From: Phenylobacterium sp.
GTDB taxonomy: Bacteria > Pseudomonadota > Alphaproteobacteria > Caulobacterales > Caulobacteraceae
Reading direction: 5' to 3'
Assembly: GCF_044358365.1 (NCBI RefSeq)
Contig: NZ_JBIKNZ010000007.1
Coordinates: 9,488 to 73,487 of the forward strand
DNA: 64,000 nucleotides
Made by a program: the position numbers and the translations under genes. This document shows, in pieces, positions 9,359-63,672 of this stretch. The first letter of the stretch is position 1, and each line of letters begins with the position of its first letter. The notes under the pieces are model-generated. The model was not told the origin of the DNA. It was given only the letters and a program-made list of their open reading frames with translations, and ran no database searches.

Positions 9359-10826
9359 CGGCGGCGACCGTCTGCGCCGACGTTCGCCAATCCGAAGCGA
9401 CGGCGGCGTAGAGCCGGATCATGTCGAGGTCATACTGACCCTGAGAGCGGGCGACGGTCTGCCGTGCCCGGTTCACCAGCTGCTGCACCTCAACCACCTG
9501 GCGCAGGCTCGCACCGCCCAGATCATAGGCTGCGTGTGCGGTGCGTAACTTGCCTTCTTCGGCTGCCAGCGAACGGCGATCCGCCTCCAGTTCCGCGTGG
9601 TCGGAACTCGCGGCGGAGAGTGCGTCGCTGACCTGCACGAACGCTCTGAGGACGGTCGACTGATATCGCGCCAGAGCGACCCGCGCCTCCGCCTCGGCTG
9701 CGCGCTGGCGGGCCTTTAGCGTTCCGCCGTTGAACACCGGCGCCGACAGGCCGGAGAACAGGTTCCAGCCACTGCCGCTGTAGCCGAACAGCCCCTCGGG
9801 TGTGGTCGCCGTCTGGGTCAGAGTCGCGGTCAGGCGGATGTCCGGGTAGCGGTTGGCCTGGGCGATTCCTATCGCGGCAGTGGCGGCGTGCAGTTCCGCT
9901 TCAGCGGCGAGGATATCGGGTCGAGTACGGACAAGGGCTGATGGAAGGGCGACGGGAACGTCGGCGACGGCCTGCGCAGGATCCAGGGCGAAGTCCGGTG
10001 GCGTCCATTCTGCGGGGGCGCGTCCGACGAGCAGCGCCAGCTGATGGCGCGCGGAGGCCAGGTCTTTCTGCAGGCGAGGCAACGACGCCTCGCTGTCAGT
10101 CAATTGCCGGTAGATCAGCACCAGATCGGAGAGGGGGACGCCGCCCTCCGCCTGGGCCGCCCTGACCATCTCGAAGATCCGGCGGTCGTCGGCGATGACG
10201 GCCTCGATCGCGGTGATCTGGGCCCGAAGCGCGGCGATGGTCATGGCCTGACGCGCGACGTTGGCCGTCAGCGTCAACCGGGCGGCGTCGGCCTCATGGC
10301 GCGCCACCTCCACCATGGCCCGGGCCTGCTCTGTCGCCCGCCGGCGGGCGCCGAACAGATCGAGGTCGTAGTTCACGTTCCCACCGACCGAAAGCAGCCC
10401 GATCGTCGGTGGCGTGAAGCCGGAGAAGCCGAACAGCTTGGAGTTAATCCGGGTCTTCCTGGCGCTGGCATTGAGGTCAGCTTGCAGCCGCTGTTGGCCT
10501 CGGGCGGAATCCGCCTCGGCCTGGGCGCGTTCCAGGGCGGCATTGGCTTCGGCCAGGCCTTGGTTGTTGGCCAGCGCCAACTGCATGACCTCGTCCAGCC
10601 CCGCCAGGCCAAGGGCCCGCCACCAGGGGCCGTTGGGTGAGGCGACCGGATCGAGGCGCACGCCAGGCGGCGTGGCGTCCCCCTTCATGGCGTATCCAAC
10701 GGCAGCGGCGCCTTGCGGCGGGGCGGGCGTCTCGAAATTCGGGCCAGCGGTCGTGCAGGCGCCTGTTGCAAGCGCCAGGGCGATCACCCACGTCGCGCGA
10801 GATTGAAGCTCAGGGCGCCCGGGCAT
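9348..10826 (-). CDS. Efflux outer-membrane factor lipoprotein (NodT/TolC family)
   Basis: Lipobox-like TGAC, YDLDLFG, LVRTRPDILAAE, two OEP repeats. Confidence 0.9.
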   Translation of the reverse strand: MPGRPELQSRATWVIALALATGACTTAGPNFETPAPPQGAAAVGYAMKGDATPPGVRLDPVASPNGPWWRALGLAGLDEVMQLALANNQGLAEANAALERAQAEADSARGQQRLQADLNASARKTRINSKLFGFSGFTPPTIGLLSVGGNVNYDLDLFGARRRATEQARAMVEVARHEADAARLTLTANVARQAMTIAALRAQITAIEAVIADDRRIFEMVRAAQAEGGVPLSDLVLIYRQLTDSEASLPRLQKDLASARHQLALLVGRAPAEWTPPDFALDPAQAVADVPVALPSALVRTRPDILAAEAELHAATAAIGIAQANRYPDIRLTATLTQTATTPEGLFGYSGSGWNLFSGLSAPVFNGGTLKARQRAAEAEARVALARYQSTVLRAFVQVSDALSAASSDHAELEADRRSLAAEEGKLRTAHAAYDLGGASLRQVVEVQQLVNRARQTVARSQGQYDLDMIRLYAAVASDWRTSAQTVAAAKP

Positions 10827-11865
10827 CAGCGGCCTTCTGCGGCTGGGCGCGAATGTCCACCTTCACCGTGGCCGAGAGGCCTGCGGCGAGGTCGCGGGTG
10901 GGGGTGTCCAGTTCGATCCGAACCGGCAGGCGCTGTGTGACCTTGACCCAGTTCCCGGTGGCGTTCTGGGCGGGAAGTGCGGAGAAGGCCGCACCGGTGC
11001 CGGGTGAGAAACTGGCGACATGACCTCGTAACCCGGCGTCGGGGCGAGCGTCCACGTTGATCTCTACGGGTTGGCCGACCTTCATTCCGGCCAACTGGTC
11101 TTCCTTGAAGTTGGCCTCGATCCAGGGTTTTCCAGACAGCAGCCAGAATGCGGTCTGAGAGGCGTTGAGATAGGTTCCGACAGGCATCTGCTGAACCCGG
11201 GCCACCACACCGTCAGCCGGAGCGGTAACCGTGGCGTCGGATACTGACAGTTCCGCCCTGTCAAGCTGGGCCCGGGCCTGCATCACCGCCGGCGCGGCGT
11301 CGGTAGCCAGGTTTGGGTCCCCGCCGAGGCCTGCCAACGCCTGGGCGGCAGCCTGCTGGGCCGCAGCCAGTTGTCCGCGCGCCAGCGTCGCTGTGTGAAC
11401 GGCCTGATCCACCTGGAGCTGGGAGATGACCCCCACCCTGAACAGCTTGCGCAAGCGTTCTGCCTCTCGCTGGGAGAAGGCCAAAGTCTCGCGCGCGGCT
11501 TCGACGTTGGCGGCCTGGACCCGGTAGGCGGCGCGCAAGGTGTCCACCTGCATCCGTGCGCCGGCCAGTTGCGCGGCGGCGGCCTGAGCGGCGGCCTGAT
11601 GATCGCGGACATCCAGCCGGAACAGGACCTGGCCGCGCTTCACGACCTGGTTCTCCGTCACATAGATCTCGGTCACCCGTCCGCTGATCGAGGGCGCGAC
11701 CGGCGCCTTGGCGATCTGGACATAGGCGTCGTCGGTTGTCTGGTAGCGACCGCTCAGCATGAAGTAGGCGATGACGCCGCCGAGAATCAGCACCGGTCCG
11801 GCGATGATCAGCGGCCATCGCCAACGGCGTCGGCGAGGCGGCTCTGTGGGATTTGTAGCGGTCAT
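10810..11865 (-). CDS. emrA: EmrA-like membrane fusion protein (HlyD family)
   Basis: N-terminal TM, TDDAYV, ANFKEDQL, PAQNATGNWVKVTQRLPVRI (EmrA signature). Confidence 0.88.
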   Translation of the reverse strand: MTATNPTEPPRRRRWRWPLIIAGPVLILGGVIAYFMLSGRYQTTDDAYVQIAKAPVAPSISGRVTEIYVTENQVVKRGQVLFRLDVRDHQAAAQAAAAQLAGARMQVDTLRAAYRVQAANVEAARETLAFSQREAERLRKLFRVGVISQLQVDQAVHTATLARGQLAAAQQAAAQALAGLGGDPNLATDAAPAVMQARAQLDRAELSVSDATVTAPADGVVARVQQMPVGTYLNASQTAFWLLSGKPWIEANFKEDQLAGMKVGQPVEINVDARPDAGLRGHVASFSPGTGAAFSALPAQNATGNWVKVTQRLPVRIELDTPTRDLAAGLSATVKVDIRAQPQKAADARAP

Positions 11866-12353
11866 GATCCGGCCTCTTCGTCCGGTGTTTCGATCTTCAT
11901 CTCAGCAAGGCGCACACGTACCCGCTCCAGGCTGGTCTGTAGCAATCCCAGCTCGTGCTCGGACAGATCGCGGAAACAATCGGCCTGCAATTCATCGGAC
12001 GTTGCGAACATCACCGGGATCAGTTCGCGCGACAGCGGCGTCAGATGCACGCGCCATTTTCGGCGATCCGACGGGTCGGCCCGTCGCTCCACGTGACCGC
12101 TTTTCTCCAGCCGGTCGACCGTCTCGCCCAACGCGACCCTGCTGATTTCGAGACGCTCCGCCAGCGCCGCCTGGGTCAGACCGTCCTGACGCGACAGATA
12201 GGCCAGTGCCCGCCAGGTCGCCGTCGTCAGCCCCAGCTTGCGCATCCGCACATCGAAGTGGGCCCTGAGCAGGCGCGTGACCTCTGCAAGACCGAAACCG
12301 ATCTCGTAGCGGGCGTTCGACCCTTCCCGCAGCACAGCTGTCGGCGCGTCCAT
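11862..12353 (-). CDS. MarR family transcriptional regulator
   Basis: LTQAALAERLE..., LEKSGHVERRADPSDRR; overlaps emrA by 4 nt. Confidence 0.9.
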   Translation of the reverse strand: MDAPTAVLREGSNARYEIGFGLAEVTRLLRAHFDVRMRKLGLTTATWRALAYLSRQDGLTQAALAERLEISRVALGETVDRLEKSGHVERRADPSDRRKWRVHLTPLSRELIPVMFATSDELQADCFRDLSEHELGLLQTSLERVRVRLAEMKIETPDEEAGS

Positions 12354-12453
12354 ATCGATCCGTTTTTCAACTAGACGTCATCGCCTTTGAATGTAATGGA
12401 CCTTATCGTCAAGTGCCTTCCTAGAGAGGCCGTTTCAGGGTCGAGACCGGTTC

Positions 12454-13977
12454 GTGGCCACCGCGAAGGACATCAAGAACCGGATTCCCATCACCGGCGC
12501 CCTGATGCTGGCGACCTTGATGAACACGCTCGACTCCACCATCGCCAACGTCGCCTTGCCGCACATCCAGGGCAGTGTCTCGGCGGCGCAGGACCAGATC
12601 ACCTGGGTGCTGACCTCCTACATCATCGCCACGGCGATCATGACCCCGCTGTCCGGCTGGCTTTCGCAGCGGATCGGGCGGAAAAAGATGTTTCTGTACT
12701 CGGTCGCCGGCTTCACCCTGGCCTCCGTGCTGTGTGGCACGGCGACCAGTCTGCCTGAGATCGTGATCTATCGCCTGCTGCAGGGCATCGCGGGCGCCTC
12801 GCTGATTCCGCTGTCACAGGCGACCATGCTGGATCTCTACCCCCAGCACATGATCCCCCGGGTTATGAGCCTGTGGAGTGCGGCGATAATTCTCGGGCCA
12901 GTGATCGGCCCCAGCCTGGGGGGCTGGCTGACCGAGACCCTGAGCTGGCGCTGGGTTTTCTACATCAATGTGCCGATCGGCATCCTGGCGTTCCTCGGCA
13001 TCCAGACCTACATGGACACGGATGAGGGCGGGCGACAGCGGCCCTTCGACTTTCTGGGTTTCGGGGCGCTCACCCTGTTTGTCGGCAGCTTCCAGCTGAT
13101 GCTGGATCGGGGGCCAGGCCAGGACTGGCTGGAGTCCCGGGAGATCATTCTCACCGCCGCGATCACGGCCGCAGGCCTCTATGTCTTTGTCGCCCAAAGC
13201 TTGACGTCGAAGAACCCCTTTTTCCATCGAGATCTGGCGCGAGACGCCAACTTCGTGGGCTCGGCGGTGTTTGGCTTCTTCATAGGCATCCTGCTGTTCT
13301 CTACCACCGCATTGCTGCCGCTCCTGATGCAGAACCTGATGGGTTACTCCGCGCTGCAGAGCGGTTGGGCCAGCATGCCGCGCGGCCTGGGTTCGCTGAT
13401 CGCCTTCCTGGCCGTGCCGTTTCTGGTCTCGCGGTTCGGCGCCAGGCAGGTGCTGGTCGTAGGCGTCCTCGTTTCGGCCTATTCGCTTTGGGATATGAGC
13501 CACTTCGACCTTAGCATGACGGCTACGCCGATCATGGTCACCGGCTTTGTCCAGGGCCTGGGCACCGGCCTTATGTTCGCCCCGTTGAGCGCGCTGGGCT
13601 ACGCCACCCTGAGCCCGGTTCACCGCACCGAGGGCACCATCATCGCCACCATGGCCCGGACCCTGGGCTCGAGCGTCGGCATCTCGGTGGTCCAGGCCCT
13701 GCTGATCAACAACAGCGCACTCGCCCACGCCCGTATCACCGAGCGGGTGGCGATCGGCGATCCCGTTCTGGCCGCCGCCCTGCCGCCCGCCTACAGCCCG
13801 GCGACGACGGAAGGCCTGCAGATCCTGAACGCCGAGGTAACCCGGCAGGGCGCCATGGTAGGCTACGACAATCTCTTCAGCTGGATGGCGGTGGCCGCGC
13901 TGATCCTGCTGCCGATGATCTTTGTGATGCGGGCGACCCCGGCAGCCCCCAGCCGCGCCGAGCCGCCGGCCGACTGA
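12454..13977 (+). CDS. emrB: DHA2 (EmrB/QacA) 14-TMS MFS efflux permease
   Basis: LDSTIANVALP, WVLTSY, GPVIGPSLGG, WRWVFYINVP. Confidence 0.9.
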   Translation: MATAKDIKNRIPITGALMLATLMNTLDSTIANVALPHIQGSVSAAQDQITWVLTSYIIATAIMTPLSGWLSQRIGRKKMFLYSVAGFTLASVLCGTATSLPEIVIYRLLQGIAGASLIPLSQATMLDLYPQHMIPRVMSLWSAAIILGPVIGPSLGGWLTETLSWRWVFYINVPIGILAFLGIQTYMDTDEGGRQRPFDFLGFGALTLFVGSFQLMLDRGPGQDWLESREIILTAAITAAGLYVFVAQSLTSKNPFFHRDLARDANFVGSAVFGFFIGILLFSTTALLPLLMQNLMGYSALQSGWASMPRGLGSLIAFLAVPFLVSRFGARQVLVVGVLVSAYSLWDMSHFDLSMTATPIMVTGFVQGLGTGLMFAPLSALGYATLSPVHRTEGTIIATMARTLGSSVGISVVQALLINNSALAHARITERVAIGDPVLAAALPPAYSPATTEGLQILNAEVTRQGAMVGYDNLFSWMAVAALILLPMIFVMRATPAAPSRAEPPAD

Positions 13978-37156: not shown

Positions 37157-38059
37157 TCACCCCGGAACCGGAAACCCGCCTGCCCGGCTGACCGAAGCCG
37201 CCGGCGTCTTGCCCACCAGCGCTGACGCCCAGTTGCCGATCTCGATGAGCTTGCCCAGATCGTAGGTCGTCTCAAACCCGGCGCGTTCCAGCATATAGAC
37301 CAGATCCTCGGTGCCGATGTTGCCGGTTGCGTTGGGGGCGAACGGACAGCCGCCCAGGCCGCCGACGCTGGCGTCCAGAATGTCGACCCCGGCCTCGACG
37401 CCCGCAAAGGCGTTGGCCAGGCCGGTGTTGCGCGTGTCGTGGAAGTGCAGGCGCAGCGGAATGTCGCCGGTCAGCTTGCGGGCCGCCTCCACGCGGCGGC
37501 GCACCAGCCAGGGATCGGCGACGCCGATGGTGTCAGCCAGAGCGATCTCGGCCACCTTCAGGTCGGCGGCGGCCTTCACGATTTCCATCACACGGGCTTC
37601 GGGGACCTCGCCCTCGAAAGGGCATCCGAATGCAACGGAGATCGTCATAGAGATCGGCGGGTCACCCGGCTTGCGGGCCGCCACGATGGCGGCCAGCGCG
37701 TCCACCTGCTCGGCCGTCGAAGCGCCCTGATTGCGGATGCCGAAGCCATCGCTGGCGCAGACCACCACATTGGCCTCGTCGCACCGGGCTTCGACGCAGC
37801 GCTCCCAGCCCCGGGCGTTCAGCACCAGGCCGATCCGGGAGCGGCCCTCGGCGTGGGGCAGGGCGGCCATGATCTCCTCGGCGCCGGCCATCTGCGGCAC
37901 GCGCTTGGGATTGACGAAGGACACCACCTCCATGCGCCGTGCGCCGGCGGCCTCGAGCCGGGCGATCATCTCCAGCTTCTGGCCGACATCCAGCAGGGTC
38001 TTTTCGTTCTGCAGGCCGTCGCGCGGGCCCACTTCCACGATCTCGATCTTGCGTCCCAT
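37157..38059 (-). CDS. hmgL: Hydroxymethylglutaryl-CoA lyase
   Basis: EVGPRDGLQNE, HFHDT, GGCPFAP.ATGN. Confidence 0.9.
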   Translation of the reverse strand: MGRKIEIVEVGPRDGLQNEKTLLDVGQKLEMIARLEAAGARRMEVVSFVNPKRVPQMAGAEEIMAALPHAEGRSRIGLVLNARGWERCVEARCDEANVVVCASDGFGIRNQGASTAEQVDALAAIVAARKPGDPPISMTISVAFGCPFEGEVPEARVMEIVKAAADLKVAEIALADTIGVADPWLVRRRVEAARKLTGDIPLRLHFHDTRNTGLANAFAGVEAGVDILDASVGGLGGCPFAPNATGNIGTEDLVYMLERAGFETTYDLGKLIEIGNWASALVGKTPAASVSRAGGFPVPG

Positions 38060-39747
38060 TATGGTGTCTCCCGGGCGTCCATGTCGGGCGCCACATAGAC
38101 CCTCAACGTCATCGGGTCGCCCTTGGAGTAGTTCAGGCCCTCGATCTTGGCCACTTCCTCGGCCCGGCCGCCGCGCGCCTTCAGCGCGGCGCGGAAGGCG
38201 GCCTCCTCGAGATCCTCGACAATGGCGGGGCGGTTCTCGACCACGGCGCGGGCGGCTTCATCCGGCCCGTCCAGCTCGGTGGCGGTGCCCAGGGCGAAGA
38301 CCAGACTGGGCTCGGCGAACCCGGCCACAGCGACGGGCGCCTCGGCCACGCCCTGTCGCGGCAGCAGCCGGTTGTCGCCCATGGCTTGTTCCAGGCGGGC
38401 TGAAAGCCACAACGGTTCAAGGCGCGGCGCCAGGCCCGCCGCCAGCGCGCCATGACCCAGCACGCCCAGTGTCAGCGCCGCAGCGGTAGCGGCGACAGGT
38501 GCCTTGCGGATCAACAGCCCCGCGCCGACAAGACCCGCACCGCCCAGCAGCCCCACTGTCAGGGTTGCGGCCCATAGATCGCTCGGGTCTCCGTAGAGCG
38601 ACAGCAGATAGACCACCCCGCCAGCCAGCGCCAGGCCAGCCAGGGCGCAAAGGCCAGCGCCCATCCAGCGTGAGACCACGCCCATCGGCTCGGCTAGGGC
38701 ACGCGCCGCCAGCCAGGCCAGTGCGCCATAGGTGGGCAGCGTATAGTGGGGCAGTTTGGTGGGCAGCAGCTCAAACAGGATCCAGGTCGGGATCAGCCAG
38801 GCCATCGCGAACCGCACCCCGGGCTCCTGCCGCCAGCGCCAGGCGCCGATCACCGCAGCGGGCAGCAACAGGGTCATGGGAAAGGCCAGAATGGGCGTCA
38901 GCAGGGTGTGATAGCCGAACGGTGCGCCATGTGTTTCCTGACCACCAGCCAGCTTGGGCGCAAGGTCGGACCCCACCGCCTGGGACCAGAAACCGCCGTC
39001 TGTGGCGACGGTCACTGCCCCCGCCCAGGGCCCGACCACCGCAAGTACGATCATCAGACCCCACCACCATTGCAACTGGCCGAGCCAACCCGCGCGACGG
39101 TCGGCAAGGATCAGGGCCAAGATCGCAAGCAGAGCCACCATCGGCCCGACCGGCCCCTTTATCAGGGTCGCCAGGGCGATGCCGGTCCAGAATAGCCAGA
39201 CTGCTGCGGAACCTGCTGCCGGTCCGCCATTGCGGGCCGAATAGAGCCGGGCCAGGGCGGCCATCGCCAGAGTCGTCACGCCGGCCAGCATGGCGTCAGT
39301 CTTGGCGATGAAGGCCTCGGTCGAAAGCAGGAAGCTGGCCCCCAGCAGGGCGCCGGCTACCAGCGCCGTCCGGGCGTTGAAGAACGCCGCCGCCCCCCAG
39401 ACGCAGGCGGCCGCAGCCAGCATTGCGCCCAGCAGGGAGGGGATGCGGTAGGCCCAGATCTGTCGGGCTTCGGGACTGGAGAAGGTTGAGACGCTGGCTG
39501 CCTGTAACCAGTGAATACCCACGGGCTTCTTGAAACGTGGCGCATCCTGGAATTGGATGACCACGAAGTCATGGCTCTCCAGCATCTGGACCGTGGCCTG
39601 GGCGAAGCGGGATTCGTCCCGGTCGAGTGGCGGCATGGCCATCAGCCCGGGCAAGCCGGCCAGAAAGGCGATCAGGGCCGCAACCGCCGGACCCCGCCAG
39701 CCGCCGCTCCATTTCGCCATGATGTCGTCCAGCGTCATGCGACTCAA
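38059..39747 (-). CDS. ArnT/RgtF-like polyprenol-phosphate-sugar-dependent glycosyltransferase (GT83), probable lipid A modifier
   Basis: DRDESRFAQA, KKPVGIHW, AKTDA, LIKGPV, TKLPHY; about 13 TMs. Confidence 0.85.
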   Translation of the reverse strand: MSRMTLDDIMAKWSGGWRGPAVAALIAFLAGLPGLMAMPPLDRDESRFAQATVQMLESHDFVVIQFQDAPRFKKPVGIHWLQAASVSTFSSPEARQIWAYRIPSLLGAMLAAAACVWGAAAFFNARTALVAGALLGASFLLSTEAFIAKTDAMLAGVTTLAMAALARLYSARNGGPAAGSAAVWLFWTGIALATLIKGPVGPMVALLAILALILADRRAGWLGQLQWWWGLMIVLAVVGPWAGAVTVATDGGFWSQAVGSDLAPKLAGGQETHGAPFGYHTLLTPILAFPMTLLLPAAVIGAWRWRQEPGVRFAMAWLIPTWILFELLPTKLPHYTLPTYGALAWLAARALAEPMGVVSRWMGAGLCALAGLALAGGVVYLLSLYGDPSDLWAATLTVGLLGGAGLVGAGLLIRKAPVAATAAALTLGVLGHGALAAGLAPRLEPLWLSARLEQAMGDNRLLPRQGVAEAPVAVAGFAEPSLVFALGTATELDGPDEAARAVVENRPAIVEDLEEAAFRAALKARGGRAEEVAKIEGLNYSKGDPMTLRVYVAPDMDARETP

Positions 39748-39794
39748 ATAGCACGATCCTTACGCGCGCCGACTTTTCCGCTATGCAGACAGCC

Positions 39795-40520
39795 ATGGTT
39801 TTGGCGCCTGAAATTTCTGTGGTCGTTCCGGTGTTCGATGAAGCCGGCGCAGCGCCTGACCTGGCGCGAGAGATCGCGACGGCGTTCGCAGGCCGATCCT
39901 TTGAAATCCTGTTCGTTGATGACGCCAGCCGGGATGGCACCCGAGAAGCCCTCAATGCCCTGCGCGCCGAAATTCCACAGCTACGCGTGTTGGCGCACCG
40001 GCGTAACTCGGGACAAAGCCGCGCCATCCGCAGCGGCATCCTTGCCGCCCGCGGGCCGGTGATTGTCACTCTGGACGGCGACGGACAGAACGACCCTGCT
40101 GATGGCCCCGCCCTGGTGGACGCGCTTGCGGCGGGCGGGGCAGATTTGGCCATGGTCGGTGGCGAGCGGATCAAGCGGCAGGACAGCCAGGCCAAGAAGC
40201 TTGCGTCACGCTTCGGCAACGGTATCCGGCGGCGGCTTCTGCGTGACACGGCCCGTGATACCGGCTGTGGCCTGAAGGCCTTCCGACGGGAGGCGTTCCT
40301 GCAGCTTCCCTACTTCGACCATATCCACCGCTATCTGCCGGCGTTGATGTTGAGGGAGGGCTATGACGTGACATTCCAGCCGGTCCATCACCGCCACCGA
40401 CAGACCGGGCGGTCGAAATACACCAACCTCGGCCGGCTGATGGCCTCGCTCTCGGACCTGCTCGGCGTCATATGGCTACAGTCGCGCTCGCGGAACCCAG
40501 GCGGCGTCGACGAACTCTGA
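39795..40520 (+). CDS. GT2 polyprenol-phosphate glycosyltransferase (ArnC/RgtE/Dpm1-like)
   Basis: VVVPVFDE, VDDASRD, NSGQSRA, TLDGDGQNDP, RDTGCGLKAF, HRYLPAL. Confidence 0.88.
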   Translation: MVLAPEISVVVPVFDEAGAAPDLAREIATAFAGRSFEILFVDDASRDGTREALNALRAEIPQLRVLAHRRNSGQSRAIRSGILAARGPVIVTLDGDGQNDPADGPALVDALAAGGADLAMVGGERIKRQDSQAKKLASRFGNGIRRRLLRDTARDTGCGLKAFRREAFLQLPYFDHIHRYLPALMLREGYDVTFQPVHHRHRQTGRSKYTNLGRLMASLSDLLGVIWLQSRSRNPGGVDEL

Positions 40521-56626: not shown

Positions 56627-57790
56627 TTAGGCCCGCGGCGCCACCGCGCGCAGACGATCCGATACAAACTCCGCCAACCGGTTGACCGGGTTCTCGCCCG
56701 GGGTCTTGCGACTGGAGATGAACGTCAGCAGGCATACGGTCGAGAAGATCGCGAAGGGCCAGCCGATCACGGTGGCGGCCGATGCCGCCCCTTTGTCCGC
56801 CAGGCCCTGGCCGAGCAGCAGGGAGGTCTGGAACGCAAAGAGCAACAGCCCGGCGATGGCAAAAGCCGCGCGGGATTGCGCGCGCTTGGCGGAGAGACCG
56901 AAGGGCACGGCCAGCAGGGGCATCAGTGGCAGCACCAGCGCCCGCGCCAGTCGCGAGTAGAGTTCGGCCAGCAGTGTCTCGCGAGGGAGAGCCGGCGTGG
57001 GGCCTCCATAGCCCATCCGGGCCAGCTCTGTGAGGGTGAGCTCGGTTTCCTCGCCGCTGCCGCGGCTGCGCAGTAGCCGCGCTGCCGGAGCCAGGGGAAG
57101 GCGCAGGGTCAACTCCGAGAAGGTCAGGAGGTGCGGCGCGCCGGTTGGGTCAGTACTGAGCTGCTGACCGTCCCGTAGATCGAGGGTCACACTGAGGCCG
57201 TCCTGGTTGTGATGGATGTCAGCGGTTGCGGCCGTCAGCACGTCCTCGCGGCCGCCAGGCGATAGCCGGCGCAGAAACACCTTCTGCAGCCGCTGCCCCG
57301 TGGGGTCCACGCCCTCGGCGGTCAGCAACAGGCTGGGGTCTGGCGACAACAAGGCCCTTGGCTGGATCTGGCCGCTCCAACCGGCATTCTCGGCGGCATG
57401 CAATACGGCGCGATAGCCATAGCGGCTGTAGGGTTGGATGAAACCGTAGAGCAGCAGGCTAAGCAGCATCAGCACCACGCCCAGCGCCACAAACGGCGCT
57501 GCGATCCTCCCCAGTGACATACCGCTGGCCAACATGGCGTCGATCTCGGATTCGTTGTTAAGGCGGTTCACCACCACGAACAGCGCGATGAAGAAGCCTA
57601 CCGGCAGGATCAGGCCCAGATAGTGCGGGGCAAGATTCATCATCAGCCCCACGAGGTAGCTGAATCCGTCCTGTGTCTGCGCCAGCAAATCGAACGATCT
57701 GAGCACCCGCTCCAGCAGAAAGGCCAGCATGGTGCTGGTCAGGACCGCGGCCATGGGGCCGAAGGTGCGGCTGAGGAGGTAGCGGTTCAT
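56627..57790 (-). CDS. LptF/LptG (YjgP/YjgQ) family permease with no adjacent partner
   Basis: RYLLSRTF, ESEIDAMLASGMSL.RI..P, periplasmic beta-jellyroll, ELYSRLA, LAVPFG. Alternative start 57934. Confidence 0.88.
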   Translation of the reverse strand: MNRYLLSRTFGPMAAVLTSTMLAFLLERVLRSFDLLAQTQDGFSYLVGLMMNLAPHYLGLILPVGFFIALFVVVNRLNNESEIDAMLASGMSLGRIAAPFVALGVVLMLLSLLLYGFIQPYSRYGYRAVLHAAENAGWSGQIQPRALLSPDPSLLLTAEGVDPTGQRLQKVFLRRLSPGGREDVLTAATADIHHNQDGLSVTLDLRDGQQLSTDPTGAPHLLTFSELTLRLPLAPAARLLRSRGSGEETELTLTELARMGYGGPTPALPRETLLAELYSRLARALVLPLMPLLAVPFGLSAKRAQSRAAFAIAGLLLFAFQTSLLLGQGLADKGAASAATVIGWPFAIFSTVCLLTFISSRKTPGENPVNRLAEFVSDRLRAVAPRA

Positions 57791-58004
57791 CAGGCCGCCA
57801 ATCGTGGGACGCACCCATGCTGGCCGCTGGGCGGCCCTGGAGGTCCGCGCCGTCGAGGTCATCGACGGGCGGAGTCCGGACGTCGGGTCCTTGTCCACCG
57901 GACGGTGAGCGGGAGCAGCCAGATCCGTGTTCATGTTCGACGCCCGTCTGTCCGTAGCGAAGGCATCGCCTGTCGCCGACTGGACCTGGCGAGAGTGCAA
58001 AACA

Positions 58005-59270
58005 TCACTCGCCCGGCAGTGGACCGGCGGCGGTCAGCCCGCCGTAGGCTGGTTCCAGCAGACGCCGGCCGGAAGCGCGGGCGCGCAAGCCGGGTCGCGG
58101 TGCGGCCATGGCTTCACGATAGACGCCCACCATCTGGTCCAGAATCCGGGGCCACAGATAGGCCGCGCTCTCCAGATGTGCCGCACGGCCCATCGCAAGG
58201 CGCCTGGCCGGGTCATCCATGAGGGAGAGGATCGCATCGGCGTAGGCGCCCGGGTCATGCGAGCGGCAGAGGATTCCGGTGCGCCCTGGCTCCACCAGGA
58301 CCCGGCAATTGGGCGCGTCGGCGCACACCATGGCCAGTCCCGAGGCCATGGCTTCAAGGTTCACATTGCCGAATGTTTCGGTGCTGCTGGGGTTGAAGAA
58401 GATGTCGCCGCTTGCGATCGCCGTCGCCAGGGCGTCTCCGGAAAGGAAGCCGGTGAACACCGCGTCGGGAAGGCGTTCCCGGAACCAGGGCAGAGCCGGG
58501 CCGTCGCCGACCACCAGCACCTGGACCGGACCGCGGGCAGCCTCGAGCGCCTGGATGGTCTCGACGAAGACGCCAAGACCCTTTTCCATAACCACCCGAC
58601 CAAGGAATACCACCACCGGGCGATCATCTTCAAAGCCGTGGGCGCGCCGCCAGGCGTCGCTGCGTCGTTCCGGGTTGAAGAGCTGTGGTTCCACCCCCCG
58701 CGCCCAGACCCGTGCTCGCGCGGCCGGCGAGTCCCGCTGCACCTGCTCGGCGATTGATGGGTTGGGAGCCAGCACATAGTCGCAGCCGTTGTAGAATGCG
58801 GCCAGACGCCGTTCCATCCAGGGCTTGAGAAGGCCAAGGCCGTAGTAGTCGAGGTAGCTCTCGAAGTGGGTGTGCAAACTCGCGACCACGGGAACATCCA
58901 GTTTCCGGGCCAGGCTCTGGGCCGCCGAGCCCAGCAGGTCAGGGGCCGATAGATGAATGATGTCGGGTTTGAACGCTCTGACATCCTGTTGAATGTGACG
59001 CGGCAGCCCCATGGCCACGCGGTACTCCGGCCGCAGTGGAATGGCGAATGAAGGCACCGAGACCAGTTCTCCGACCGGCGCAAACGCAGGCTTCGGGGCG
59101 GTTGGCGAATAGATGCGAACCTGGACACCGGCCTGCGACTGGAGATGGTCAACCAACCTGTTGAGGGTCTTGTTTGCGCCGTCGAGTGTGCAGTTGTAGT
59201 TGCCCGAGAACAGGGCGACGCGCGCCGGTCGCTGCAGGTAGGCGCTGCTGGTGGGCCGCTCTGTGGTCAT
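58005..59270 (-). CDS. GT4 glycosyltransferase (MGDG/alpha-monoglucuronosyl-lipid-type)
   Basis: VALFSGNYN, FLGRVVMEKG, PSSTETFGNVNLEAMASG. GAGGGA RBS. Confidence 0.9.
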   Translation of the reverse strand: MTTERPTSSAYLQRPARVALFSGNYNCTLDGANKTLNRLVDHLQSQAGVQVRIYSPTAPKPAFAPVGELVSVPSFAIPLRPEYRVAMGLPRHIQQDVRAFKPDIIHLSAPDLLGSAAQSLARKLDVPVVASLHTHFESYLDYYGLGLLKPWMERRLAAFYNGCDYVLAPNPSIAEQVQRDSPAARARVWARGVEPQLFNPERRSDAWRRAHGFEDDRPVVVFLGRVVMEKGLGVFVETIQALEAARGPVQVLVVGDGPALPWFRERLPDAVFTGFLSGDALATAIASGDIFFNPSSTETFGNVNLEAMASGLAMVCADAPNCRVLVEPGRTGILCRSHDPGAYADAILSLMDDPARRLAMGRAAHLESAAYLWPRILDQMVGVYREAMAAPRPGLRARASGRRLLEPAYGGLTAAGPLPGE

Positions 59271-59485
59271 TGATAGTCCCTCGAACATGAAATCGGCCGT
59301 CTGGTGGGGAGGCGCCGTCGAACGGCAACCGCCTCAATCATCCTGAGTTCCGCCATTCGGTAGGGCTTTGCGCGCGACGTCCTGTCACGTAGCGGCCTTA
59401 CGGAGAGCTGGGCGATTCGCCGGTCGCTCCGGCGCGACGCCGCGCCAGGGACGTGACGACCCGGGCGGCAGATCAGGGGTGGAAG

Positions 59486-60673
59486 ATGCGAATAGTCGAT
59501 GTGGCGGAGTTCTATGCGCCGAACGGCGGCGGCGTCCGGACCTACATCGATCGCAAGTTCATAGCCGCCGCCGAGGCGGGCCACGAGCTTTTCGTCATCG
59601 CTCCGGGCCCGAAAGACGGGTTCGAGGCGCGCCCGGGCGGCGGAGTGATCTGGGTGCGTTCGCCGGGATTGCCGTTTGATTCCAACTACTGGATGTTTGT
59701 CCATGCTGGCCCGGTGCACGCTCACCTCGACCGGCTGAAGCCCGATCTGGTCGAAGCCTCGTCGCCCTGGCGCGGCGCATGGATTGTTGCGAGCTGGGCA
59801 GGATGCGCTGCGAAGGCAATGTTCTGGCATGCGGATCCCGTCGCCTCCTATCCCCAGCGTTGGCTGGCCCCCCACGTCGATCCGGACCGAATCGATCAGC
59901 TCTTCGCGGGGTTCTGGTCTCACCTCCGCCGCTTAGCGACTTACTTTGACAGTTCGGTTGCAGGCAGCGTCTGGCTTGGCAGACGGCTGCACGATCTGGA
60001 CATGGGCCTCCTGGCGACGATCCCTCTGGGCGCCGACTGCAGCGCCTTTTCCCCTGCGCTCCGTGACGACGCGCTCCACGCCAGGCTGGTCAGCGATCTG
60101 GGCCTGCCGCCGGATGGCAAGGTGCTGCTCGGGGTCGGACGGTTTCACCCACAGAAGCGCTGGCCGATGATCGCCGCCGCCGTTGCTGCGGCAAATGGCC
60201 CCGAACAGCCGATTGGATTACTGATTCTGGGCGACGGCATGGACCGCGCGCGGGTGGCCCGGGCGGCGCGGCGCTATCCCAACATCCAGCTGATGACGCC
60301 CACGCGGGATCGTAGCTATCTGGCCAAACTGTTCGCCAGCGTCGACGGCCTCGTGCACGGGAGCGAATCGGAGACCTTTGGACTTGTGATCGCCGAGGCG
60401 CTGGCTTCGGGTCTGCCGGTGGTCTTGCCGGATCGCGGGGCCTGCTCGGAACTCGCCCCGCCGCCGGTGCGCGAAATCTATCGTTCGGCAGATGTGCGAT
60501 CCGCGACGGCGGCGATCCTGCGCCTGTTCGCCCGCGACCCGGTTGCGCTGAGGGCCGCTAGCCTGCAGGCCGCGACGGAAGTCCGAAGTGACAGCCAACA
60601 CTATGTCGAACTGTTTGACTTCTACGACCAGCTGATTCGGGACAGGCACGCCGAAAGCGCCACGGCCGCATGA
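59486..60673 (+). CDS. GT4 glycosyltransferase
   Basis: IVDVAEFYAPNGGGVRTY, GVGRFHPQKR, SESETFGLVIAEALASG. Confidence 0.9.
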   Translation: MRIVDVAEFYAPNGGGVRTYIDRKFIAAAEAGHELFVIAPGPKDGFEARPGGGVIWVRSPGLPFDSNYWMFVHAGPVHAHLDRLKPDLVEASSPWRGAWIVASWAGCAAKAMFWHADPVASYPQRWLAPHVDPDRIDQLFAGFWSHLRRLATYFDSSVAGSVWLGRRLHDLDMGLLATIPLGADCSAFSPALRDDALHARLVSDLGLPPDGKVLLGVGRFHPQKRWPMIAAAVAAANGPEQPIGLLILGDGMDRARVARAARRYPNIQLMTPTRDRSYLAKLFASVDGLVHGSESETFGLVIAEALASGLPVVLPDRGACSELAPPPVREIYRSADVRSATAAILRLFARDPVALRAASLQAATEVRSDSQHYVELFDFYDQLIRDRHAESATAA

Positions 60674-61617
60674 CACTGGAAACGCCCGATGCTCCCAGCG
60701 GACCTGAAACCCGCAAGGCTCGACTGAAGCGGATTGCGCTGGCCGTGGCGCCTTGGGCGGGCGGCCTGTTCGCGATCGCGCTGTTCATCGTCACTCTGCT
60801 GCAACTGAGCCAGGTGTCATCGGAAGCCCTCGCCACCGTTCAGGGGCTGTCGCCCGCAGTCTGGTTGGTGTTCGTCCTGCTCTATCTGGCTCAACCGGTG
60901 GCTGATCAGGTGATCTTCCAGCGACTCTGGCGGCTTCCTGTCCGCAGTTTCGGGGTGATGCTGCGCAAGGTGGTCATCAACGAAGTGCTGTTCGGCTATA
61001 GCGGCGAGCTCTACTTCTACGTCTGGGCCAAAAGCCGGGCTGGCCTCAGCGACGCGCCATTCGGGGCCGTCAAGGACGTCAACATCCTCTCGGCGCTGGG
61101 CGGCAACGTCCAGACCCTGATCCTGCTGTTGGTCAGTGCGATCAGCCTGACCCAGATCGATCTGGCGCATCAGCTAGGTCCCGCACTTTGGCCCGGCCTG
61201 GCTATGGTTGCGCTGACCTTCGGTGTGTTGCTGTTCCGCAAACGCGTGTTCTCGCTGACGCGCCCGGAGCTGGTCTTTGTCGCTTGGGTCCATACGGCGC
61301 GGATGATCGCGACCACAGGGCTCACGCTGCTGCTCTGGTCGCTGGCGCTGCCGGAGGTCGGGCTGGGCGTATGGCTGGTGTTGCTGGCCAGTCGCCTGTT
61401 GCTGGCGCGGCTGCCGTTCGTGGCCAACAAGGACCTTGTGTTCGCCAATCTAGTCCTGGTGCTGATGGGTGCGGGATCATCGGCGGCGCTGCTGCTGGCC
61501 ACCCTGGCCATCGCAACGCTGATGGCCCATCTGGCCGTAACCCTGGTCGTCGGCGCGCCTGACCTGGTTCGGGCGGTGTCGAAGGTATCGAGCCACCGCC
61601 GCGAGACACTCACCTGA
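60670..61617 (+). CDS. Polytopic membrane protein (lysylphosphatidylglycerol-synthase TM/UPF0104 flippase-like)
   Basis: About 8 hydrophobic segments, NEVLFGYSGELYF, RLPFVANKDLVF; ATGA-coupled to the GT4. Confidence 0.6.
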   Translation: MTLETPDAPSGPETRKARLKRIALAVAPWAGGLFAIALFIVTLLQLSQVSSEALATVQGLSPAVWLVFVLLYLAQPVADQVIFQRLWRLPVRSFGVMLRKVVINEVLFGYSGELYFYVWAKSRAGLSDAPFGAVKDVNILSALGGNVQTLILLLVSAISLTQIDLAHQLGPALWPGLAMVALTFGVLLFRKRVFSLTRPELVFVAWVHTARMIATTGLTLLLWSLALPEVGLGVWLVLLASRLLLARLPFVANKDLVFANLVLVLMGAGSSAALLLATLAIATLMAHLAVTLVVGAPDLVRAVSKVSSHRRETLT

Positions 61618-61733: not shown

Positions 61734-62468
61734 ATGCGCCAGTTCACCTTCGGAGAGATCACCGAGGCGCTGGCGGGTCTGCGGGACCAGACGCGTGGCG
61801 CTACGGATGAGCGGCTGGCCTTCATCCACTTCTGCCTGACCCACCTGGCCAGCAGCCGCGCGCAGTTCCTGCAGGATCTATGGGTGGCCTGGGAACTTGG
61901 GTCGTTGCGCGACGGCTACTTCGTGGAGTTCGGCGCCACCGACGGCGTGAAGTTCAGCAACAGCTGGTATCTGGAGCTTGAGCTGGGCTGGCAGGGCATT
62001 CTGGCGGAGCCCGCGCACGTCTGGCAGACGGCGCTGCGACAGAATCGCACCTGCCACATCGATACGCGATGCGTCTGGATCGAAACCGGCCGCACCCTGA
62101 CCTTCAATCAACCCGAGATCGCCGCCCACGCCACCATCGACAGCTTCTCCGACAGTGACATGCACGCCGAAAGCCGCCGTGCGGGCGCACGCTATCCGGT
62201 GGAAACGGTCTCGCTCGACGACCTGCTGGCCTTCTGGAATGCGCCTCGCCGCATCGACTATCTGTCCATCGATACCGAGGGCTCGGAGCTCGACATCCTG
62301 CAGCATTTCGACTGGTCCGCCCATGATGTGCGGTTGATCACGGTGGAGCACAACCATACCGAACGCCGGGCGCTGATCCACGCGTTCCTCACCTCGAAGG
62401 GCTATGTGCGCAAATTCGAGGCCCTGTCCAACGTCGACGACTGGTACGTCAAGACAGGCGCCGGGTAG
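61734..62468 (+). CDS. FkbM family SAM methyltransferase
   Basis: FVEFGATDGVKFSNS, GWQGILAEP, IDYLSIDTEGSE, ITVEHN. Confidence 0.9.
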   Translation: MRQFTFGEITEALAGLRDQTRGATDERLAFIHFCLTHLASSRAQFLQDLWVAWELGSLRDGYFVEFGATDGVKFSNSWYLELELGWQGILAEPAHVWQTALRQNRTCHIDTRCVWIETGRTLTFNQPEIAAHATIDSFSDSDMHAESRRAGARYPVETVSLDDLLAFWNAPRRIDYLSIDTEGSELDILQHFDWSAHDVRLITVEHNHTERRALIHAFLTSKGYVRKFEALSNVDDWYVKTGAG

Positions 62469-62475
62469 GGCGTCC

Positions 62476-63672
62476 GTGGACCTCAAGCGCAGCGCCCGAT
62501 TGCTCCTGACCACCAAGGCGATCCGGGGCTATGGCGATGGCTTCACCGCACTGCTGCTGCCGGTCTATCTGATCAGTCTGGGTCTTGGGCCATTCGAGGT
62601 GGGTCTCGTGGCGACCGCCGCCATGCTGGGTTCGGCCATCCTGACCCTTGCCGTAGGCGTCGCCGGCCACAGGGTCAGCGCGCGCGGCCTGCTGATGCTG
62701 AGCTGCCTGCTGATGTTGATCACCGGCCTGGCGTTTTCCCAGGCCCAGAGCTTCTGGCCTCTGATAATCGTGGCATTTGTCGGTACGCTCAATCCGTCCA
62801 GCGGCGATGTCGGTGTCTTCGTGCCGCTGGAACAGGCGATGATGGCCAACGCCGGACCCGACGCAGACCGGACCACCCGATTCGCCATGTACAATGTGGT
62901 GGGCGCCGTGGGTGTGGCGCTGGGGGCCCTTTCGGTCGGCCTGATCGATCCGCTGACCCGCCTGCTAGCCCGGTCCCGTAGCGATATGCTGGAGGCCGCC
63001 TTTGCGCTCTACGGTCTGATCGGCGTAGCCGCCTTCCTGCTCTATCGCCAGCTGCCGACGGAGGCGGCGGAGGTCGCGGCCCAGCGCACGGGACTTGGCC
63101 CTTCGCGCAAGCGGGTGTTCCAGCTTGCCGCGCTGTTCAGCCTGGATTCCTTCGGCGGGGGCTTTCTGGTGCAGTCGCTGCTGGCGCTGTGGTTGTTCAA
63201 CCGGTTCGACATGACTCTGGCCACGGCAGGCGTCTTCTTCTTCTGGACCGGGCTGCTGGGGGCGGCCTCGCAGTTCCTCGCCGGGCGGATCGCGGGAAGG
63301 ATTGGACTGATCAACACAATGGTCTTCACCCATGTGCCCGCCAACCTCTGCGTCATGGCGGCAGCTTTTGCGCCGACACTGCCGATCGCGCTGGGCCTGC
63401 TGATCGTTCGCGCGGCGCTCTCCAGCATGGATGTGCCGGCGCGCACATCCTACGTCATGGCGGTGGTGACGCCGCCAGAGCGGGCGGCGGCGGCGGGGAT
63501 CACCAATGTGCCACGCAGCCTGGCCGCAGCTTTAAGCCCTGCGCTGGCCGGCGCGCTCTTCACCGCCTTCGTGTTTCCCTGGCCGCTACTGATCGGCGGA
63601 GGCCTTAAGGTGGCCTATGATGTGCTGCTGCTGAACCAGTTTCGGCACGTGAAACCGCCGGAGGAGCTTTAG
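62476..63672 (+). CDS. MFS transporter
   Basis: 12 TMs, NPSSGDVGVF, GLINTMVFTH, MDVPARTSY. Confidence 0.88.
   Translation: MDLKRSARLLLTTKAIRGYGDGFTALLLPVYLISLGLGPFEVGLVATAAMLGSAILTLAVGVAGHRVSARGLLMLSCLLMLITGLAFSQAQSFWPLIIVAFVGTLNPSSGDVGVFVPLEQAMMANAGPDADRTTRFAMYNVVGAVGVALGALSVGLIDPLTRLLARSRSDMLEAAFALYGLIGVAAFLLYRQLPTEAAEVAAQRTGLGPSRKRVFQLAALFSLDSFGGGFLVQSLLALWLFNRFDMTLATAGVFFFWTGLLGAASQFLAGRIAGRIGLINTMVFTHVPANLCVMAAAFAPTLPIALGLLIVRAALSSMDVPARTSYVMAVVTPPERAAAAGITNVPRSLAAALSPALAGALFTAFVFPWPLLIGGGLKVAYDVLLLNQFRHVKPPEEL

Follow-up and report, generated by a model that had tools for sequence, protein, structure and literature searches.

Candidate glycosphingolipid synthesis and export module in Phenylobacterium: orthologues of Sgt1 and Sgt2 beside a third LptF paralogue and a membrane protein of flippase-like fold

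The window analysed here is a stretch of 64,000 nucleotides from a Phenylobacterium species (contig NZ_JBIKNZ010000007.1, positions 9,488 to 73,487; G+C content ~66%), and our subject is a set of four genes at positions 56627-61617 that we describe as a candidate module for the synthesis and export of a glycosphingolipid. Two divergent genes encode glycosyltransferases (GT) of family GT4; one is followed on the same strand by a gene of the LptF/LptG permease family, and the other is coupled to a gene for a polytopic inner-membrane protein. A first-pass annotation of the same DNA had picked out these four genes, and all of them are present, with the following limits (aa, amino acids; TM, transmembrane):

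56627..57790, minus strand: lptF3, permease of the LptF/LptG family (PF03739), 387 aa, start chosen by alignment to relatives
58005..59270, minus strand: sgt1 orthologue, GT4-1, 421 aa, upstream of the permease gene on the same strand
59271..59485, no strand: divergent sgt1/sgt2 intergenic region, 215 bp, with a conserved [CT]GTCA[CT] box
59486..60673, plus strand: sgt2 orthologue, GT4-2, 395 aa, divergent from GT4-1
60670..61617, plus strand: polytopic inner-membrane protein, 315 aa, about 8 TM segments, coupled to sgt2

The earlier description of two divergent GT4 genes, one with a same-strand LptF/G-family permease, agrees with the 215-bp divergent gap and with the match of the permease to PF03739 (LptF_LptG) at an E-value of 1.5e-66. 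The translational coupling claimed for GT4-2 and the membrane protein is also borne out, as the ATG of the membrane-protein gene overlaps the GT4-2 stop codon as ATGA, and an identical 4-bp overlap is found in Caulobacter segnis and P. immobile. The label of eight TM segments is roughly right: it fits the hydrophobic membrane segments (about 8) and not the helices, of which the modelled structure has 11. The raw sgt2 open reading frame (ORF) starts with a GTG at 59453, and public collections record the exact 395-aa form. Exact sequence matches of the window proteins occur in Phenylobacterium sp. and in MAGs (metagenome-assembled genomes) of related Caulobacteraceae. The raw permease ORF reaches 58000; translation from another upstream ATG, at 57934, would add a low-complexity extension, for a total of 435 aa. 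The spacer of 214 bp between sgt1 and lptF3 (57791-58004) is unusually long, as in both C. segnis and P. immobile the two genes are 6-18 bp apart. The Pro/Arg-rich N-terminal extension with which some gene callers close the spacer, in the 435-aa lptF3 form, is probably spurious. lptF3 and sgt1 probably share one transcript; a tRNA-Arg gene lies 38 bp past the permease stop.

Both GT4 proteins have the GT4 (GT-B) architecture, with Glyco_transf_4 plus Glycos_transf_1 / Glyco_trans_1_4 domains in Pfam. In C. crescentus, Sgt1 (CCNA_00793) adds hexuronic acid to ceramide and Sgt2 (CCNA_00792) adds hexose, deletion of sgt1/sgt2 abolishes the glycosphingolipid GSL-2 and leaves diacylglycerol (DAG) glycolipids unaffected, and GSL-2 synthesis by the two enzymes is under PhoB control (PMC6445935, Stankeviciute et al. 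2019). These genes were anchored by mapping the published primer table (PMC6445935) onto the locus of C. vibrioides DSM 9893 (L029), in which the cloning primers EK785/EK786 match exactly at the two ends of the GT4-2 orthologue, both ccna_00792 quantitative PCR (qPCR) primers match exactly within it, and the GT4-1 orthologue carries exact matches of EK788 and of the ccna_00793 qPCR forward and reverse primers. GT4-1 is 64% identical to C. vibrioides sgt1 over 377 aa and GT4-2 is 61% identical to sgt2 over 387 aa, each in the same position of the module, whereas the cross-comparisons (GT4-1 against the sgt2 counterpart, GT4-2 against that of sgt1) give only 24-27%. The primer-anchored synteny and these identities make the two window genes syntenic orthologues of CCNA_00793 and CCNA_00792. 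Furthermore, the N-terminal motifs that the first-pass annotation had noted occur in the characterised Caulobacter proteins, ALFSGNYN in Sgt1 and MRIVDVAEFY.P.GGGVRTYI in Sgt2.

The best NCBIfam match of both GT4 proteins is GpgS (NF053787), a recently described synthase of GlcNAc-phosphatidylglycerol, at 162-163 bits against a cut-off of 480 bits; because these scores are about a third of the cut-off, the two proteins lie outside the GpgS clade proper and are, as judged from the profile scores, relatives and not members of this lipid-glycosylating clade. By orthology, GT4-1 is predicted to be a ceramide glucuronosyltransferase and GT4-2 the transferase of a second sugar (hexose) onto hexuronic acid (HexA)-ceramide, and that the locus synthesises a glycosphingolipid of the GSL-2 type is well supported and very probable. 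The window genes share with the C. crescentus pair the divergent arrangement of two GT4 genes, their order and orientation, the 64% and 61% identity and the N-terminal motifs; they differ in belonging to another genus, in which both the product and the regulation by PhoB are predicted from orthology. The published work on Sgt1 and Sgt2 did not count the flanking permease and membrane-protein genes in the system.

The structure model of the permease has three TM helices, a periplasmic β-jellyroll and three further TM helices, and its top Foldseek matches in the PDB are LptF chains (6mit_F, E 5.7e-13). The residues Glu82-Ile83-Asp84 are invariant in the family alignment and fall in the stretch aligned to A. 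baylyi LptF, which we take, from E. coli LptF, to be the helix that couples to LptB. The permease scores 184 bits on the LptF equivalog TIGR04407, under the cut-off of 230; C. segnis LptF2, at 188 bits, also lies below it, and a Sphingomonas lptF product reaches 243. Identity is 48-49% to LptF2 (CCNA_01214), about 25% to the housekeeping LptF (CCNA_01762) and about 20% to LptG and LptG2. The comparators LptF2, LptF, LptG2 and LptG (CCNA_01761) were machine-read from a supplementary figure of a preprint, with a few residues lost, and the LptF2 string is a valid probe since it is 96% identical to a database protein. Neighbour-joining analysis of 22 sequences, among them LptF, LptG and LptG2 (100 bootstraps, scored as bipartitions), unites the sgt-linked permeases in one clade (100/100) with LptF2 as its sister (99/100), and the housekeeping LptF falls outside. 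The phylogeny that the first-pass annotation had proposed as a check thus places the permease with the sphingolipid-linked LptF2 and not with the housekeeping LptF.

Two assignments of the permease were considered and rejected. It is not the housekeeping LptF of lipopolysaccharide (LPS) transport, given its ~25% identity to CCNA_01762, its position outside that branch and the lack of an adjacent LptG. Nor is it LptF2 itself, as the sgt1-adjacent permease of C. vibrioides and the LptF2 of that species share only 45-46% identity and are thus distinct genes, and C. segnis carries both. In C. segnis the two lie on one chromosome, the sgt-linked lptF3 at 2.34 Mb and lptF2-lptG2 at 3.34 Mb, the latter in a locus that also holds spt, an acyl carrier protein (ACP) gene, cerR-like and kinase-like genes and, as probable bcerS, a 384-aa gene without a Pfam match. 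By its sequence relationships, the permease is a third LptF paralogue that stands alone and belongs to the sphingolipid branch of LptF, itself recognised only recently, and we call it LptF3.

LptF2 and LptG2 associate in a complex and also interact with LptB, the LPS ATPase, and lptF2/lptG2 can be deleted only in strains unable to make the anionic sphingolipid CPG2; the preprint that describes LptF2/G2/C2 for CPG2, which gives CCNA_01762/01761 as the LPS pair LptF/LptG of C. crescentus, makes no mention of glycosphingolipids or of a third LptF (bioRxiv 10.64898/2026.04.12.717747). LptF3 resembles the LptF2/LptG2/LptC2 system (CCNA_01214/01213/01226; Uchendu, Isom and Klein 2026; Olea-Ozuna et al. 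2024) in its LptF fold and its position in the sister clade, and LptF3 and LptF2 alike score below the LptF equivalog cut-off, carry the conserved Glu motif and come without a dedicated ATPase gene. Unlike LptF2, LptF3 stands alone without LptG or LptC, is linked to sgt1 and not to spt/bcerS, from which it is ~1 Mb apart in C. segnis, and has a C. crescentus counterpart that is induced by PhoB.

Neither the window nor any of the orthologous loci yielded an LptG-like partner, and no second gene of the LptF/LptG family turned up in the whole 64-kb window. The Pfam domain survey of the window left out 26.8-28 kb and most ORFs of <300 aa in the first 28 kb. Among the scanned ORFs and called genes it found no other Lpt-related domain, pepA and lptA-D not being searched for individually, and no ceramide-synthesis gene was recognisable among the scanned ORFs, spt and bcerS likewise not being searched for individually. 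The first-pass annotation had called the unit self-contained, and this is overstated, as the window shows neither ceramide-synthesis genes nor LptG, LptB or LptC. The ceramide-synthesis genes and the LptG, LptB and LptC partners would be encoded outside the module; the C. segnis sphingolipid locus lies ~1 Mb away from the four-gene module.

Solo LptF-like permeases were also seen on plasmids, namely Acetobacter pomorum pSH1 (L086:6992-8101) and plasmids of Roseomonas and Diaphorobacter, with 27-34% identity to LptF3 and LptF2. On the Acetobacter plasmid, the surroundings of the permease gene include a glycosyltransferase gene, one labelled 'LPS biosynthesis' and insertion sequence (IS) elements. 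The plasmid search also yielded a Sphingomonas sphingolipid locus, which served as a comparator. LptF paralogues that stand alone may be commoner than has been appreciated.

Downstream of the module, the window carries an FkbM-family methyltransferase gene and a gene for a transporter of the major facilitator superfamily (MFS) (61734-63672), and past the window end (L001:5173-15056) follow Wzm/Wzt-like ABC genes, a GT2 gene and several unknown genes that look like a polysaccharide cluster. These neighbours, together with public annotations that label the GT4 proteins 'mannosyltransferase' or 'cell wall biosynthesis', could point to a locus that serves LPS, O-antigen or exopolysaccharide, in which the GT4 enzymes would build a glycan and the permease would be an LPS-type LptF. 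We consider this highly improbable: the downstream genes adjoin the module in its three nearest relatives but not in other Caulobacteraceae, deletion of the GT4 orthologues removes only glycosylated ceramide, and the permease, at ~25% identity to the housekeeping LptF, has no adjacent LptG, the LPS pair being CCNA_01762/01761. The FkbM, MFS and polysaccharide genes were also rejected as members of the module, as they are not conserved beside it and the FkbM gene adjoins it only in those three relatives.

In C. crescentus, sgt1 and sgt2 are PhoB-dependent (PMC6445935), and public RNA-seq data from this species (PMC11208175, Supplementary Data 1) show the same behaviour for CCNA_00794, the gene adjacent to sgt1 and presumed permease orthologue. 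With PhoB ON (pstS deletion with or without PitA), the raw counts are 1750/1132 and 1607/878 for CCNA_00793 and 1104/956 and 1166/640 for CCNA_00794; with PhoB OFF (phoB deletions, low whatever the cytoplasmic phosphate level) they are 174/208 and 27/43 for CCNA_00793 and 131/92 and 63/60 for CCNA_00794. CCNA_00794 and sgt1 therefore rise and fall together with PhoB activity. Between sgt1 and sgt2 of the window, the box [CT]GTCA[CT] (CTGTCAC, 59381-59387) recurs at the aligned position in 17 of 22 orthologous intergenic regions; as a conjecture, it may be a candidate PhoB site, perhaps part of a Pho box. A promoter scan of this intergenic region found no sigma-70-like promoter, and a terminator scan gave terminator-like sites at chance level. 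When phosphate is limiting, PhoB probably activates the module.

A scan of loci, with one genome per species and a 14-sequence alignment of the membrane protein, gave 371 matching loci, and the counts that follow are taken from the best 80 of these. All 80 belong to Caulobacteraceae or Sphingomonadales, the two sphingolipid-making alphaproteobacterial groups covered in the cited papers, and with two exceptions they carry an sgt2-like gene adjacent or close to the membrane-protein gene. Among Caulobacteraceae, sgt2 lies directly or closely upstream of the membrane-protein gene in 30 of 30 loci, and the order lptF3, sgt1, sgt2, membrane protein is kept in all 26 loci that are sufficiently long. 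The flanks of the module are entirely different in C. segnis, P. immobile and the window, and because 26 of 26 loci keep the four-gene arrangement while the flanks differ, the arrangement is not due to chance. Furthermore, Caulobacter sp. 1776 carries two complete modules on different contigs (L015 and L028), and the identity of 71-77% for all four proteins between the copies means that the module was duplicated or acquired whole. In a Caulobacterales metagenome-assembled genome (MAG) among the 26, the LptF-like gene (L011:5337-6620) is divergent in sequence, with 39% identity to LptF3 and 37% to LptF2, and is inverted so that it converges on sgt1.

The order in Sphingomonadales is membrane protein, DUF2141 and sgt2-like gene, with no LptF3 nearby, and this absence fits the single LptFG pair reported for these bacteria (bioRxiv 10.64898/2026.04.12.717747). 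The DUF2141 gene, which encodes a small secreted protein, lies between the flippase-like and sgt2-like genes at L049:10822-11352 and in most Sphingomonadales loci (L031-L084), and a DUF2141 gene also adjoins lptF2 in the C. segnis sphingolipid locus (L088:8999-9505). DUF2141 proteins may have a periplasmic part in sphingolipid handling that has gone unrecognised.

These data bear on a second explanation of the permease, by which LptF3 would not be specific for the glycosylated lipid but would back up LptF2, or serve as its isoform in phosphate starvation, and so increase the overall capacity for exporting ceramide or sphingolipid while phospholipids are replaced; it would stand beside sgt1 only through shared PhoB control. 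This explanation would account for LptF2 being the closest relative of LptF3 and for the PhoB induction of the LptF3 counterpart, and it gains from the report that the PhoB regulon includes the ceramide synthase too and from the Sphingomonadales, which make glycosphingolipids with a single LptFG pair and no LptF3 beside the membrane-protein/sgt2-like operon. However, lptF3 is very tightly linked to sgt1, with only 6-18 bp between them in two species, and the linkage holds in all 26 loci; the gene was duplicated along with the GT genes in Caulobacter sp. 1776; and the 45-49% identity to LptF2 leaves ample room for an altered substrate cavity. We regard a general back-up role as unlikely, and prefer a role of LptF3 in the export of the glycosylated lipid.

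The 315-aa membrane protein matches no Pfam or NCBIfam family. Among 33 relatives there was no consistent or flippase-family Pfam match, and no PF03706 match even at E-values up to 5; a profile/sequence search of the PDB gave no match, and hhalign against one PF03706/HpnL protein gave a probability of 0.2%, hence no link. The family is compact, with 724 representatives among 1.84 billion proteins in a profile search, the best 150 of which all look like full-length members. An alignment-based AlphaFold model (pLDDT 88.5, pTM 0.84) was compared with the PDB by Foldseek, and the only credible matches are MprF structures (7duw_A and 7f47; probability 1.0, TM-score 0.52 and 0.49), which extend over ~300-321 aligned columns, essentially the whole chain, at weak E-values of 0.011 and 0.07; the remaining matches have probabilities of <=0.21. 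The 'flippase-like' label of the first-pass annotation thereby gains some support at the level of the predicted fold. The residues K100, N104, D136, R211 and R247 are invariant and lie within predicted helical segments, and these polar and charged positions in the model are consistent with a path for a lipid head group.

The model of the protein gives a possible fold match to the MprF flippase domain (7duw, 7f47) over the whole chain at a TM-score of ~0.5, and the protein differs from MprF in its 16-17% identity without a signal at the sequence level, in lacking a synthase domain and in its proposed substrate, a glycosphingolipid rather than aminoacyl-phosphatidylglycerol. Because the MprF E-values are weak and the sequence and profile tests against flippase families failed, we keep the flippase role at the level of the predicted fold, at which, with additional support from the gene architecture, the protein is a candidate glycosphingolipid flippase.

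A comparable architecture is known from Pseudomonas aeruginosa gpgSDF, which acts in the synthesis of glucosamine (GlcN)-phosphatidylglycerol, comprises genes for a GT4 lipid glycosyltransferase, a deacetylase and a predicted flippase of UPF0104, and was likened by its authors to hexSDF of Clostridioides difficile (PMC12713373). As in gpgSDF/hexSDF, a GT4 lipid glycosyltransferase stands beside a polytopic flippase-like protein, with a 4-bp overlap in the window. Unlike gpgSDF, the window module would use ceramide and not phosphatidylglycerol/DAG as acceptor, has an added Lpt-type permease and no deacetylase, and contains a membrane protein that is not a sequence-detectable member of UPF0104/PF03706. 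In C. segnis, ~3 kb from lptF2-lptG2, a GT4 gene (best match GpgS, 154 bits) overlaps a PF03706/HpnL gene by 4 bp (L088:15424-17561) and forms a second glycosyltransferase-plus-flippase pair near the sphingolipid locus. Among the relatives, a DUF2334 deacetylase gene occurs only in a Sphingomonadales MAG (L044:7862-13711), with the order DUF2334/polysaccharide-deacetylase (GpgD-like), sgt1-like, flippase-like, sgt2-like and LptF/G-family gene, which follows the synthase, deacetylase, flippase logic of gpgSDF and would fit glucosamine-containing glycosphingolipids.

Instead of flipping lipid, the membrane protein could serve the soluble Sgt2 by anchoring it to the membrane, presenting its acceptor or activating it, or it could be an enzyme that modifies the head group. 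The null results with Pfam, with the PDB sequence search and with hhalign against one PF03706 protein leave room for such roles, as do the strict pairing with sgt2-like genes across two orders and the fact that the flippase role of the analogous GpgF is itself unproven (PMC12713373). On the other hand, the MprF membrane domain is the sole structural match and covers essentially the whole protein (321 aligned columns), the invariant K100, N104, D136, R211 and R247 can be read as a head-group path, and the pairing of a glycosyltransferase with a flippase-family protein recurs in gpgSDF (and hexSDF as cited there) and in C. segnis. We find these other roles improbable and favour that of a flippase.

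We propose that the locus is the Phenylobacterium version of a Caulobacteraceae GSL-2-type module with flipping and Lpt-type extraction, and put the probability of this reading at roughly 0.6. As read from their sequences, Sgt1 and Sgt2 have neither a signal peptide nor a TM segment, and GT-B enzymes of the Sgt kind use nucleotide sugars; for these reasons both would act on the cytoplasmic leaflet. There Sgt1, as a cytoplasmic GT-B enzyme, would add hexuronic acid to ceramide and Sgt2 would add hexose, giving an anionic Hex-HexA-ceramide that would need help in crossing the membrane. Given the periplasmic location of CerR (PMC11087976), the synthesis of the ceramide itself would end on the periplasmic side. 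The sgt2-coupled protein of MprF fold would then move the glycosylated lipid to the periplasmic leaflet, and LptF3, presumably replacing or duplicating LptF2 in an LptB-powered extractor and probably borrowing LptG2 or LptG, would pass it over the Lpt bridge to the outer membrane. Each of the two transport roles, flipping by the membrane protein and extraction by LptF3, is suggested by linkage, fold and co-regulation, and we favour each only slightly over its denial.

Several points weigh against this proposal. The roles of the permease and of the membrane protein are predictions from sequence and model, and our literature search found no paper that names CCNA_00794 or CCNA_00791; CCNA_00794 was equated with the permease orthologue by adjacency and numbering, the RNA-seq supplement having no annotation text for it. 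The module comes without LptG, LptC or an ATPase, and GSL-2 export might need no LptF-type permease beyond LptF2G2. The flippase assignment comes from the fold, at a weak Foldseek E-value of 0.011, and the Pfam, PDB and hhalign searches were null. Sphingomonadales keep the membrane protein and the sgt2-like gene without LptF3, which means that LptF3 is not universally needed. Finally, spt, bcerS and cerR were not seen among the scanned ORFs of the window, with no search aimed at spt or bcerS in particular. A bolder form of the proposal holds LptF3 to be a PhoB-controlled swap-in for LptF2 in LptG2-LptB2 (or in a dimer of its own), which would retune the extractor from ceramide phosphoglycerate to glycosylated ceramide, and the membrane protein to found a new MprF-fold family of glycosphingolipid flippases common to Caulobacteraceae and Sphingomonadales; we offer it tentatively and think it somewhat doubtful.

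The sugar-adding enzymes of the module are already known. The papers searched contained no description of either flanking gene, the permease or the membrane protein, and a search for literature on Phenylobacterium sphingolipids gave nothing useful. How bacterial sphingolipids move across the envelope is an open problem, with no sphingolipid flippase or transporter yet identified according to a 2024 paper (PMC11087976), and the locus makes the question testable in a model organism, in which two genetically tractable candidates, the CCNA_00794-like LptF3 and the CCNA_00791-like protein of flippase fold, travel with the known sugar-adding enzymes. Ectopic expression of Sgt1/Sgt2 lyses C. crescentus (PMC6445935), and the locus suggests a reason for this, in that the lipid would there be made without the co-induced export genes. 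If the swap-in of LptF3 is real, it would be the first re-specification of an Lpt transporter's substrate by paralogue exchange, and the membrane protein, if a flippase, would supply the one reported as still missing in 2024 (PMC11087976). The glycosphingolipids of Sphingomonadales are discussed for biomedical use, which gives their export route some practical interest.

In a domain search that covered most of the rest of the window, including the neighbouring 28-56 kb, ordinary metabolic and transport genes were seen. At 37157-40520, an HMGL-like gene lies beside a gene for a PMT-family (ArnT-like) membrane glycosyltransferase, with a divergent GT2 gene that resembles the ArnC/ArnT pair for lipid-carrier sugar transfer. 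The intervals 1672-3384 and 9348-13977 hold a gene for an RTX calcium-binding repeat protein and genes for an outer-membrane factor, an HlyD-type adaptor and an MFS pump, which look like a tripartite efflux set.

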